64,000 nucleotides of DNA from the NCBI RefSeq assembly GCF_963921235.1, contig NC_086108.1, positions 93,622,001 through 93,686,000 on the forward strand, read 5' to 3'. The notes beneath the pieces were generated by a model. The model was not told the DNA's origin. It did no database searches and saw nothing but the letters and a program-made list of their open reading frames with translations. Shown piece by piece: positions 24,915 through 52,945 of the stretch (its first letter is position 1; the number at the start of each line of letters is the position of its first letter). The DNA is from Mobula hypostoma. Taxonomy: Eukaryota. The translations under genes and the position numbers were made by a program.

Positions 24915-25872
24915 AGCGAATATTCAATTTATAAGTTTGCTGATGACACCACAATTGTAGGCCGTAACTCGGGCAATGATGAGTTAGAGTACAGAGAGGA
25001 AATTAAGAACCTGGTGGCATAGTGCAAAGACAATAACCTATCCCTCAATATCAGCAAGACGAAGGAATTGGTTGTTGACTTCAGAAGGAGTAGCGGACCA
25101 CACGACCCAATTTACATCGGTGGTGCACAAGTGGAACAGGTCAAAAGCTTTAAGTTCCTTGGGGTCAATAGCACAAATGACCTGACTTGGTCCAACCAAG
25201 CAGAGTTCACTGCCATGAAGGCCCACCAGCGCCTTTACTTCCTGAGAAAACTAAAGAAATTTGGCCTGTCCCCTAAAACCCTCACTAATTTTTATAGATG
25301 CACCGTAGAAAGCATTCTTCTAGGGTGCATCACAACCTGGTATGGAAGTTGTCCTGTCCAAGACCAAAAGAAGCTGCAGAAGATCGTGAACATGGCACAG
25401 CACATCACACAAACCAATCTTCTGTCCGTGGACTCACTTTACACTGCACACTGTCGGAGCAGTGCTGCCAGGATAATCAAGGACACGACCCACCCAGCCA
25501 ACACACTTTTTGTCCCTCTTCCCTCCGGGAGAAGGTTCAGGAGCTTGAAGACTCGTGCAGCCAGATCTGGGAACAGCTTCTTTCCAACTGTGATAAGACT
25601 ACTGAATGGATCCTGACCCAGATCTGGGCCGTACCCTCCAAATATCCGGACCTGCATTTTGGTTTTTTTGCACTACCTTACTTCCCATTTTTCTATTTTC
25701 GATTTATGATTTATAATTTAAATTTTTAATATTTACTAATTTTAACTATTCTTAATATTTTTAATATTTAATATTTGTAATCCAGGGAGTGTGAAGCGCA
25801 GAATCAAATATCGCTGTGATGATTGTACATTCTAGTACCAATTGTTTGGTGACAATAAAGTATAAAGTATAG
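24915..25872 (+). mobile_element. Rex1/Babar LINE 3' part (RT C-terminus)
   Basis: KFADD at ~24933; VVDFRR, FKFLG, KAHQRLYFLRKLKK, SFFPTVIRLLN; AATAAAG(TATAAAG) tail. Confidence 0.9.
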
Positions 25873-41327: not shown

Positions 41328-41926
41328 ACATGGTCTGTACATTCTACTGGCTGTGTCGTGAAGAAGGCACAACAGCGCCTCTTTCACGTCAGACGGTTGA
41401 AGATGTTTGGTATGGGCCCCACCAGATCCTAAGGACTTTCTACAGGGGCACAATTGAGAGCATCTTGACTGGCTGCATCACTGCCTGGTATGGGAACTGT
41501 ATTCCCTCAGTCGCAGGGCTCTGCAGAGAGTGGTGCAGACAGCCCAGTGCGTCTGTAGATGTGAACTTCCCACTATTCAGGACATCTACAGAGACAGGTG
41601 TGTAAAAAGGGCCCGAAGGATCACTGGGGACCCAAGTCAGCCCAACCACAAACTATTCCAGCTGCTACCATCCAGGAAACGGTACCGCAGCATAAAAGCC
41701 AGGACCAGCAGGCTTCGGGACAGCTTCTTCCACCAGGCCATCAGACTGATTAATTCAAGCTGACAAAATTGTATTTCTATGTTATATTGACAATCCTGTT
41801 GTACATAACATTTATCATAAATTACTATGATTGCACATTGCACATTTGAACAGAGATGTAACGTGAAGATTTTTACTCTTCATGTATATGAAGGACGTAA
41901 GTAATAAAGTCAATTCAATTCGATTC
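41328..41926 (+). mobile_element. Rex1/Babar LINE 3' fragment inserted into a hammerhead motif
   Basis: KKAQQRLF, FYRGTIESILTGCITAWYG, SFFHQAIRLINS; (CAATT)n tail. Confidence 0.85.
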
Positions 41927-42556: not shown

Positions 42557-42643
42557 GTCAGTATGGAGTACCAGCACCCTGGTATTTTCCACTCCAGATT
42601 TCTTACTGGGCTGGTGCTGAAAAGCCCCAAGCTGCAACAGAAG
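42557..42643 (+). CDS. ABCA4: ABCA4 exon 17 equivalent (extended, 87 nt)
   Basis: tttag|GT...AAG|gtgagt; phase 1-1; GQYGVPAPWYFPLQISYWAGAEKPQAATE. Confidence 0.93.
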
Positions 42644-43361: not shown

Positions 43362-43648
43362 GGGCGGCACGGTAGCGCAGTGAGTAGGACAACGCTTTAC
43401 AGTACTGGTGGCACAGGGTCAATTCCCGCCACTGCCTTTAAGGAGTTTGTACATTCTCCCCATGGCCATGTGGGTTTCCTCCAGGTTGCTCCGGTTTCCT
43501 CCCACAGTCCAAAGACGTGCCATTTGTTAGGTTGATTGGTCGTTGTAAGCTGTCCTGTGATTAGGCTAGGGCTAAATTGGGGGATTGCTGGGCGGCGCAG
43601 CTCCAGGAACTGGTAGGGCCAACTCCGTGCTGTATCTCAATAAATAAA
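43362..43648 (+). mobile_element. tRNA-derived V-SINE
   Basis: GGGCGGCACGGTAGCGCAGTG head, GGTCAATTCCC B box, V-domain, AATAAATAAA tail. Confidence 0.85.
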
Positions 43649-44146
43649 TGACAATGAAGTTCCATAGCGGTCAACCCCTTATCCAGAATCAGAATCAGTT
43701 TATTCAAGGACATTATCTCAGAGCGGTTACTTTAGTTAATCCTGAGGCTAAATATTAATGAATTCAGACCATAATGTCAACAGTTTTCTTATCTCAGACT
43801 CCCTATCCAGAGATTATGTCCAGATTCTCCAGTCTTCAGTGTCCACACAAAAAATTCCTTCACAATCCCATTCCTTATTGCCATCCAGACTAATGATGAA
43901 GTCTTCTGTGCTGGCTCAGTGTTGTTTTCCGATGGAGAGATAACCTTGGAAATCTAACAGGTAAAGTCTGCCACATGATTAGCTAAAATAACTGCCCCGA
44001 TATTATATTCTTCAGTGAAGTAATTCTTTGTAAAATGCTGCCAGTGTGGATTAATTTAATTGGGAGTTATTTCATCGTAAGCTATTGTATCCTAGCTTGC
44101 ATCCAAAGTGGGCATTAATCAAAATTTACTTTTAATCTTTGCTAAG

Positions 44147-44485
44147 ACAAAAATGAACTGAGAGGAGCTGTGAAAGAGCCCGAGAAGGTGGAGACACCTG
44201 CGGAGGCAAAGGAAGAGAAACCAGCAGAGAACACGGCAGAGCAAACAGAGCAAGCGCCAGACAACCCCGGGGATGGCGACAAGCCGAAGGAAAGCAAGAA
44301 GATTTGCAAACTAAAGGAAAAAGAGGTGAAGGAGCAGCTTGAGAAGGAGAGGCAGGAGAAGGAGAGACTTGAGAAGCAAAAGCAGGAAATGGAAAGGCGA
44401 GAGAAGGAAAAGCAGGAGATGGAAAGGCTGGAAAAAGAAAAGCAGGAGAAGGAGAAGGAGAAGGAAAAGGAAAAAATCAACCCCG
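44147..44485 (+). CDS. ABCA4: ABCA4 exon 18 equivalent, expanded E/K-rich linker exon (339 nt)
   Basis: ctaag|AC...CCCG|gtaat; phase 1-1, open frame continuous with exons 17 and 19; occupies the position of the 90-nt human exon 18; no recognisable sequence homology, so the call rests on frame, splice sites and position. Confidence 0.8.
44311..44460 (+). repeat. Coding minisatellite, 5 x 30 bp (10-aa unit EKEKQEMERL-like)
   Basis: Units at 44311, 44341, 44371, 44401 and 44431 translate LKEKEVKEQL / EKERQEKERL / EKQKQEMERR / EKEKQEMERL / EKEKQEKEKE. Confidence 0.9.
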
Positions 44486-44569
44486 GTAATAACTCAGATC
44501 AGTAACGCTTTAAAATCGGCTTTACAGCACTTCATGATGTTGACTATGTTTGTCTTTATCTGTTGGCAG

Positions 44570-44765
44570 TGACAGCAGCAATGGCAGGAAACCCTCTCTA
44601 TGAGCTGGAGCCTTCCAGTCTGACTCTGGGAGTGTCCATTCAGAACCTGGTGAAGACTTTCGGTGAAGGACAGAAGCCTGCCGTAGATGGGCTGAGCATT
44701 AACTTCTTTGAAGGGCAGATCACTTCCTTTCTGGGTCACAACGGAGCTGGAAAAACCACCACAAT
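44570..44765 (+). CDS. ABCA4: ABCA4 exon 19 equivalent (NBD1 start, Walker A)
   Basis: ggcag|TG...AT|gtaag; [12 protein letters not shown]...[17 protein letters not shown]; exact acceptor ambiguous (several in-frame CAGs). Confidence 0.93.
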
Positions 44766-45602
44766 GTAAGAGCTTGTGTTCTATTTGTCGCAACAATGAA
44801 AATAATCACTGCCCAGCTAAAATATGGAAACAAGCCAGGCTCATGCAGCTCTGTTTACATCCCCGCTCAAGTCAAAGGCAGTAGAATAAAGGGTTGTTGG
44901 CCATCTGCACAGTGAAAATAATTGCTCTGCACAATGGCTCTTCTGTAACTATTGAAAATCTGTCATATGTTACCGAACAGTATCATTAGAACATGACTTG
45001 CTACTGACCACATGCAAAGGGATTGCATTTGAGTTCCTGGGACCCAAACTAGCAACAAAAGATTGTAAGGGGGGGCGCTGAACAGAACAAGGGCAAGTAC
45101 GAAGGGATAGAGAAAAGCAAAAACATTGATAGATGTTTACTGCTACTTGGACAGTATGTTTTATTAGAAGGAATTTCAGTATAATTCTCTTTGGCATTAA
45201 TCCTCTCTACAGTTTCATACAAATAATTTGCTAATTTACTGTAGTCACCCAGTTCAATGTAAACCTTGGGAAGCTAGGCATTCCCTGTCCAAGGAGCACA
45301 CGTGGCTAATCACTGAACTAGAACAATAGCTGCTGTTTAAATTATCGCATGCATTCGGCAAACACGTTCCATCTGAGTCGTTCACTTCTCTGCTCCAAAA
45401 CAACTCCAAAACTTCAGCTCTGGCTCTTCTGAATTAAACTTTTCAGAAACCAGGAGCAGGAAAATTCCTTTTGTCTTTATTGTTTTGTGTACACCCTATA
45501 TCAGATCGGACTGCACCTTAAAAGATAATTTAAAAAAATAAACAGGAATGCAGGGGTACAAATTAAACGGGGTGAAGTATATTCAGTTTTCCAAGAAATT
45601 TA

Positions 45603-51711: not shown

Positions 51712-52945
51712 AACTGAAGGAAGAGTGAGTAAGGGATTTGAAAGCTGGAGGGGGAGGGTGAGATGCAAAATGATAGGAGAAGACAGGAGGGGGAGGGATA
51801 GAGCCGAGAGCTGGACAGGTGATAGGCAAAAGGGGATACGAGAGGATCATGGGACAGGAGGTCTGGGAAGAAAGACAAGGGGGGGGGGTGACCCAGAGGA
51901 TGGGCAAGAGGTATATTCAGAGGGACAGAGGGAGAAAAAGGAGAGTGAGAGAAAGAATGTGTGCATAAAAATGAGTAACAGATGGGGTACGAGGGGGAGG
52001 TGGGGCCTTAGCGGAAGTTAGAGAAGTCAATGTTCACGCCATCAGGTTGGAGGCTACCCAGACGGAATATAAGGTGTTGTTCCTCCAACCTGAGTGTGGC
52101 TTCATCTTTACAGTAGAGGAGGCCGTGGATAGACATGTCAGAATGGGAATGGGATGTGGAATTAAAATGTGTGGCCACTGGGAGATCCTGCTTTCTCTGG
52201 TGGACAGAGCGTAGATGTTCAGCAAAGCGGTCTCCCAGTCTGCGTCGGGTCTCACCAATATATAAAAGGCCACATCGGGAGCACCGGACGCAGTATATCA
52301 CCCCAGTCGACTCACAGGTGAAGTGATGCCTCACCTGGAAGGACCGTTTGGGGCCCTGAATGGTGAGACCCGACGCAGACTGGGAGACCGCTTTGCTGAA
52401 TATTGGTGAGACCCGACGCAGACTGGGAGACCGCTTTGCTGAACATCTACGCTCTGTCCGCCAGAGAAAGCAGGATCTCCCAGTGGCCACACATTTTAAT
52501 TCCACATCCCATTTCCATTCTGACATGTCTATCCACGGCCTCCTCTACTGTAAAGATGAAGCCACACTCAGGTTGGAGGAACAACACCTTATATTCCGTC
52601 TGGGTAGCCTCCAACCTGATGGCATGAACATTGACTTCTCTAACTTCCGCTAAGGCCCCACCTCCCCCTCGTACCCCATCTGTTACTCATTTTTATGCAC
52701 ACATTCTTTCTCTCACTCTCCTTTTTCTCCCTCTGTCCCTCTGAACATACCTCTTGCCCATCCTCTGGGTCACCCCCCCCTTGTCTTTCTTCCCGGACCT
52801 CCTGTCCCATGATCCTCTCGTATCCCCTTTTGCCTATCACCTGTCCAGCTCTCGGCTCTATCCCTCCCCCTCCTGTCCTCCTATCATTTTGCATCTCCCC
52901 CTCCCCCTCCAGCTTTCAAATCCCTTACTCACTCTTCCTTCAGTT

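Follow-up and report, generated by a model that had tools for sequence, protein, structure and literature searches.

A conserved cysteine motif precedes a repeat-lengthened, predicted single-helix segment in the TM6–NBD1 loop of elasmobranch ABCA4

The window analysed here, a stretch of 64,000 nucleotides from the ray Mobula hypostoma, encodes an ABCA4 whose TM6–NBD1 linker measures 190 residues from the PWYF motif to Walker A, compared with 93 residues in human, where the length is taken from a gap-free alignment of a 93-residue bird model to 7e7i. The difference of 97 residues agrees with the figure given in the earlier note on this DNA. In the reading that we favour, and consider probable, the linker forms a looped-out cytoplasmic arm that carries a conserved Cys motif and has been lengthened in elasmobranchs by a tolerated, fast-evolving helix resembling a single alpha-helix (SAH). 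Judged by the alignments, the conserved element of the loop is the Cys motif just before the repeat, which the earlier note does not mention, and not the repeat itself.

All features discussed lie on the forward strand. Exon 17 (42557–42643, 87 nt) carries the end of the TMD1 half, including the PWYF..YW motif, and the start of the cytoplasmic loop, and matches residues 863–891 of the RefSeq ray ABCA4, XP_062920691.1, exactly. Exon 18 (44147–44485, 339 nt) is an open reading frame between an AG acceptor (...tttgctaag, with pyrimidines at 13 of 17 positions) and a GT donor (gtaata); it is a frame-preserving cassette of 79% purine that corresponds to residues 892–1004 of the same protein, with an exact peptide match at 893–1004. 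An intron 18 of 84 nt (44486–44569, GT..AG) separates it from exon 19 (44570–44765, 196 nt), where NBD1 starts with Walker A, and the three exons join without a stop codon. The c.-coordinates in Table 5 of PMC7544654 give 90 nt for human exon 18, and from the same table exons 17 and 19 are 66 and 175 nt, in line with the comparison made in the earlier note. Within exon 18, an E/K/A/P-rich polar segment (44147–44295), which is predicted coil (pLDDT 33–39) and poorly conserved, is followed by the basic Cys motif K-K-I-C-K-L-K (44296–44316, with the Cys945 codon at 44305–44307) and by the 15-bp/30-bp coding repeat (44314–44469), most of which coincides with a helix of residues 948–998 (44314–44466) in the AlphaFold model. 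This order, a polar part and then a charged repeat, is the one first described from the letters.

Altogether, the window encodes residues 190–1207 of XP_062920691.1; of these 1018 residues, 1015 are identical and the remaining three fall at exon junctions. The whole protein scores 3390 bits to human ABCA4, 2588 to ABCA1 and 2055 to the next paralogue (in a comparison with ABCA1/7/3), and by these scores the gene is the ABCA4 orthologue, as had been supposed. Exon 18 is already known, being part of this public protein model. Exon 19 taken alone (44572–44766) scores higher to human ABCA1 (95 bits) than to human ABCA4 (69 bits), which illustrates how short queries mislead on orthology; given these scores, the human NBD1 start seems to be the derived version. 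A Pfam search with the exon 18 peptide returned no family, and the best ESM Atlas score was 0.76, below the usable level. Open stretches of 114–118 residues, rich in F/S/P, also run across exon 18 on the minus strand and were set aside as the mirror of the purine-rich repeat. Elsewhere in the window, intron 17 contains a SINE-like high-copy repeat at about 43370–43630, with very high depth in all four sequencing runs used below, and the intronic open stretches at 25023–25613, 41458–41760 and 52360–52650 are, from their translations, presumably retroelement fragments.

Inclusion of exon 18 was followed in four of 17 listed public runs, all in the form of contigs and three of them only guessed to be RNA. 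The contig of run X1 matches 44144–44429 and 44569–44673 with no mismatches, and the 55 letters in between equal the length of 44430–44484, a stretch of repeat that was checked in the X1 and X2 contigs by this length only. Because the gap is exactly the remaining end of the exon, intron 18 is missing from the contig. Run X2 has the same geometry across intron 18 with six mismatches. In run X7, loose ends after 42643 match the start of exon 18 at 13 of 15 bases, and loose ends before 44569 match its last 30 bases at 30 of 30. Inclusion of the exon is thus seen in three organisms (in contigs, partly presumed RNA), and the junctions that the earlier note put forward are supported, 42643>44147 in X7 and 44485>44570 in all three. 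The direct joint of exon 17 to exon 19 (42643>44570) was found in none of the 15 joints inspected out of 65, in contigs that drop rare forms. A DNA contig from another relative (run X12) carries a 15-nt in-frame insertion inside the exon.

The repeat is detected by TRF at period 30 over 44314–44455 (4.7 copies, 78%, score 121), with 30-bp units starting at 44338, 44368, 44398 and 44428, and at period 15 over 44314–44469 (10.6 copies, 66%). Identity at lag 30 is 0.69, compared with 0.47 in codon shuffles, and was reached by none of 5000 shuffles; identity at lag 15 is 0.63, reached by one of 5000. At lag 21, which would correspond to a heptad, there is no excess, and 1744 of 5000 codon shuffles reach the observed value. 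Among the 60 codon pairs of the four 10-codon units, 25 are the same, 19 synonymous and 16 non-synonymous. The repeat is genuine, and its units have had time to diverge, with the third-position differences and the absence of stops that were originally noted. The 30-bp unit stands as an enriched period and is refined in its composition: as read from the codon pattern, the basic unit is a 15-bp pentapeptide, (L/Q/R)-E-(K/M)-(E/Q)-(R/K), paired into the 30-bp unit. Arrays of EKERL of up to 330 residues also occur in two unrelated proteins, records P0131 (PF02518/PF01627) and P0174 (PF00626), so the pentamer arises repeatedly.

From the Cys to the exon end, the 57 residues are 75% E/K/R, with a net charge of +1 and no Pro or Gly. 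They contain 21 opposite-charge pairs at i+4, marginally more than in 2000 shuffles (p=0.032), and such pairs exceed shuffles (p<0.05) in 15 of 16 elasmobranch rows, which are related and not independent. The charge-pattern score is a simple one of our own, not Waggawagga, and was applied to 20 of 25 rows, leaving aside two teleost rows and those of Xenopus, turtle and bird. AlphaFold2 predicts one helix of 51 residues (948–998), with pLDDT about 80 over most of its length, and coil before it; the model is poor overall (mean pLDDT 50.8, pTM 0.34) and therefore says nothing on docking. The hydrophobic moment at the heptad angle, computed on seven residues here, is 0.49 and ranges from 0.00 to 0.53 in relatives, and a homodimer prediction for residues 937–1005 (score 0.02, mark 0.32) speaks neither for nor against pairing. 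The label 'SAH-like', already attached to the repeat, is a fair one for the predicted helix in both sequence pattern and model, and by these predictions the charged helix most likely stays a single helix.

The predicted helix shares with the SAH/CSAH domains of myosin 10, drebrin and the CAF-1 KER a richness in E/K/R, the absence of Pro and Gly, an i+4 salt-bridge pattern and a long predicted helix. Unlike those domains, it has a pentamer period that is not E4K4-like, and it lies within a closed loop and does not link two free domains; its helix is a prediction. According to the available part of PMC5812594, SAHs are monomeric by definition and occur in 0.5–3.5% of proteins per species, and pure (EK)n runs, of which the exon tail here is one, may not form stable single helices. 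A second likeness is to the LERER repeat of Mena (ENAH), where L-E-R-E-R is the Arg twin of the L-E-K-E-R pentamer of the ray; Mena has 13 such repeats in 91 residues and binds the alpha5 integrin tail (PMC10340426), which indicates that a repeat of this kind can bind a partner. The analogy is of the works-like kind, since Mena belongs to an Ena/VASP context whereas the host of the ray repeat is an ABC transporter, and the likeness is probably convergence, EKERL arrays being found in unrelated proteins as well.

The array is elasmobranch-wide. Sharks and rays are represented by 22 species: the complete exon, pentamer array included, is present in 17, a part of it in the model of one, and four lack it. 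Elasmobranch linkers span 181–218 residues with a median of 198 (17 rows), by which the 190 residues of the ray are unremarkable. The RefSeq protein of a chimaera has a 172-residue linker with the Cys motif and without pentamers; the repeat would thus have been gained on the elasmobranch stem, after the chimaera split, a timing that depends on this one chimaera record. Long loops occur elsewhere too, of 129–161 residues in ray-finned fishes, 133–167 in amphibians and 150 in turtles and birds. Non-mammalian bony-vertebrate ABCA4 (gar, sturgeon, teleosts, Xenopus, turtles and birds) has the same layout, with a polar segment leading to C-K-H and then to an EKE-rich stretch. The His of this C-K-H is replaced by Leu, Lys or Arg in cartilaginous fishes, and the distance from the Cys to the end is 62–81 residues in elasmobranchs as opposed to 30–50 in bony vertebrates. 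Turtles and birds differ further in that the loop appears, from model breakpoints, to be split over two exons and the helix repeat is absent. Human ABCA4 (7LKP/7E7I) is an orthologue with the same exon order and a linker that is disordered in the structures; at 93 residues, it lacks both the C-K-L motif and the pentamer helix of the ray.

A census of records longer than 800 residues, of which 397 of 408 could be parsed and 11 were left out, extends this picture; its records are not species, and many are redundant. The motif C-[KR]-[HLKR] in a long charged loop is present in 158 of 267 ABCA4-like records, from sharks to birds, including the Xenopus entries NP_001011033 and NP_001089022 (P0370, P0372), and in 157 of the 159 ABCA4-like records with a linker of more than 125 residues; it occurs in none of the 130 paralogue records. 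A linker of at most 100 residues and no motif are found in 103 of the 267, 40 of them with exactly 75 residues and mostly from birds; among these short records are those of four of the 22 elasmobranch species and all records seen from squamates and crocodiles, the latter two groups being represented by automated models only. Mammals are represented by human only, and no lamprey, coelacanth or lungfish ABCA4 was found. From its spread, we infer that an ABCA4-specific long loop was already present in the jawed-vertebrate ancestor. The earlier view of a lineage-specific insertion in a narrow sense is not supported, a long charged linker (129–167 residues) being general in non-mammalian ABCA4, which largely fulfils the second condition that the earlier note itself named as refuting; neither is its direction of change, an expansion in the ray, since much of the difference reflects the loss of the Cys-bearing loop on the human side. 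As estimated from medians, about 55–60 of the 97 extra residues would be human-side loss and about 40 elasmobranch gain. The longer linker of frogs and fishes may already have been mentioned in earlier work on the evolution of vertebrate ABCA4 (J Mol Evol, 2005). Two further features of this site were observed. A lamprey ABCA1-like record (P0459) has a G/K/S-rich linker of 209 residues without the Cys motif, which would be either an independent expansion or a model error. Frogs and newt (P0253–P0277, P0303, P0352) have an acidic motif, D-S-V-E-T-E-L-S-(I/V)-H-E-H, right after the exon 17 tryptophan, which was not seen in other groups.

Conservation in the loop is concentrated on one residue. 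In an alignment of 68 rows chosen for a long linker, Cys945 is shared by 68 of 68 and no other column from W237 to E373 is invariant, whereas the median column identity in the loop is 0.25. The Cys is followed at +1 by Lys in 66 of 68 rows and at +2 by His in 50 and Leu in 13, and an alignment-free count of the motif by regular expression agrees with the alignment. The part of the bird loop with which human exon 18 aligns is the proximal segment, and the human loop is without C-K-H; in the human line, the Cys motif would thus have disappeared while the proximal piece remained, and the motif would not be needed for the transport cycle itself. Among the records with the motif, many from teleosts (for example P0152, P0166, P0283 and P0308) have a second Cys motif, C-N-G-S, 8–10 residues before C-K-H, and birds have an E-G-C further up the loop, aligning to human Cys886. 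A search of the ABCA4 literature, with most subscription papers outside its coverage, found no description of the loop or its Cys, and one on phosphorylation of ABCA4 T901 found nothing; the accessible parts of PMC8501128 and PMC8219669 yielded nothing further on the loop.

The geometry of the proposed arm follows from its attachment. In the human cryo-EM models (PMC7932691), the built chain stops at 873/881 and resumes at 914/916, leaving 874/882–913/915 unmodelled, which accords with the poor order in mammalian ABCA4 stated in the earlier note. Since the folded transporter holds the loop at both ends, extra residues would loop out, and the in-series spacer originally proposed is unlikely; the interaction arm named beside it may still apply. 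In the favoured reading, the ancestral TM6–NBD1 loop would have begun with a disordered polar half and continued through a basic C-K-H motif into a short helix rich in EKE. On the shark and ray stem, a 15-bp GAG/AAG-rich unit inside this helix would have been multiplied, by slippage or unequal exchange, into a charged helix of about 50–65 residues. The helix would start from NBD1 and hold the Cys at its tip, at a distance of up to about 7.5 nm for 51 residues of 1.5 Å each, and the 50-residue coil would provide the return path to the transporter. Between two Mobula species, exon 18 differs at 5 of 113 residues and the rest at 22 of 2310 (Fisher p=0.007), a rate about 4.6 times faster, and the length from the Cys to the helix end varies from 49 to 68 residues across 16 elasmobranch rows; by this fast change and variation, the length looks tolerated rather than tuned. 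What selection would preserve in this reading is the Cys motif, together with the reading frame and the alternation of charge, and not the length.

Two alternatives concern the exon itself. That exon 18 is an intronic purine-rich repeat mistaken for an exon might be argued from the four elasmobranch models that lack it and from runs only guessed to be RNA, but contigs without intron 18 at its exact boundaries, loose ends matching both ends of the exon, and a frame and Cys kept in 17 species leave this notion a negligible probability; barring artefactual contigs, the junction evidence rules it out, and exon 18 is shown to be a normal coding exon of elasmobranch ABCA4. Compatible with the favoured arm, though in our estimate unlikely, is a regulated alternative cassette, by which photoreceptor isoforms with and without the arm, or the Cys exon, would coexist. 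The exon preserves the frame, and skipping it gives a linker of 77 residues, the length in ABCA1 (77–79 residues in 84 of 130 paralogue records). The RefSeq isoform X3 of S. torazame lacks exactly residues 892–1012, which is this exon, and Mauremys X1, Tympanuchus X2, Melanerpes X2 and a pigeon model lack only the Cys exon; RefSeq isoforms of such kind rest on RNA alignments. Against skipping, every exon-17 and exon-19 end visible in the contigs leads into exon 18, and three M. birostris and three Hemitrygon isoforms all retain it. Moreover, symmetric low-complexity exons are easily missed, with Callorhinchus, Phasianus, Pelodiscus and Erpetoichthys each having one model with and one without, so that a model without the exon does not imply a gene without it, and the missing loop in the 103 short records may represent either annotation gaps or real alternative splicing. 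Related irregularities were seen in other models. In the Hemiscyllium model (P0242), exon 18 is replaced by residues resembling read-through of the 3' part of intron 18 (window 44540–44569), probably the sign of an annotation patch. A second cassette of 27 residues, in the linker after NBD1 (P0227 residues 1383–1409) and downstream of the window, is missing from isoforms M. birostris X2, Hemitrygon X3 and S. torazame X2. A length difference of 28–29 residues separates paired isoforms in Xenopus, gar, bichir, eel and newt, and may stem from the same exon.

The other alternatives concern what selection acts on. Selection for helix length itself, giving elasmobranchs a Cys-tipped arm with which NBD1 could reach an adjacent disc rim, the plasma membrane or a partner protein, is in keeping with an array that 17 of 22 species retain, invariably in frame and showing the i+4 charge pattern, and with lengths that stay within the 49–68-residue band without running away like the 300+ residue EKERL arrays (P0131). 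However, lengths differ by about 19 residues (about 3 nm), the exon changes about 4.6 times faster than the rest of the protein, no more than 18 residues occupy this place in the chimaera, and bony vertebrates have far fewer than elasmobranchs, which makes such selection rather doubtful. At the opposite extreme, the whole loop, Cys included, might be neutral filler in a disordered region, evolving fast with free indels and partly lost in human without loss of function. The Cys and its Lys, kept across sharks, fishes, amphibians, turtles and birds in a loop of such low median identity, are hard to explain without selection, and in-frame loss of the short human exon 18 is recorded in two Stargardt cases (PMC7544654, Table 5), although this may reflect a minimum length only; we regard filler as improbable. 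We give still less weight to the idea that the repeat is a coiled coil through which ABCA4 dimerises or clusters at the rim, the zipper beginning at the Cys. Regular Leu/Met residues and a heptad-angle moment of 0.4–0.5 in some rays and sharks would suit it, but the period is 5/10 and not 7, as the lack of enrichment at lag 21 indicates, and a Leu every five residues spirals round the helix, the moment falling to 0.00–0.08 in the two catsharks with the purest arrays.

We return to the looped-out arm with a conserved Cys. A cytoplasmic Cys among basic residues suggests S-acylation, and the sequence context fits: if the arm is real, the likeliest role of its Cys would be S-acylation, pinning the loop to a membrane, with a short binding site slightly less probable and each of the two short of an even chance. 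Tentatively, and going well beyond the arm itself, non-mammalian ABCA4 may possess an overlooked, splice-switchable, Cys-tipped arm that anchors it to a second membrane or a rim scaffold, through S-acylation or a partner, with a helix extension in sharks and rays and a loss in the human line.

In sum, the repeat itself is ordinary, an SAH-like tolerated expansion common to sharks and rays and present in public models, and the loop has been hidden in alignments by the many automated ABCA4 models that drop it. The invariant Cys is a single testable residue in a loop resolved by no structure, and its motif is present in ABCA4 of zebrafish type and of Xenopus, both used as Stargardt models, and missing in human. 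Loss of zebrafish abca4 disturbs cone outer-segment structure, as stated in the part of PMC11744051 available, where the words 'linker' and 'cysteine' are absent; this phenotype makes a non-transport module worth testing. If the anchoring arm is true, ABCA4 would have had, besides retinoid transport, an ancestral function as a tether, and the models of Stargardt disease in zebrafish and Xenopus would depart from human in one defined module.
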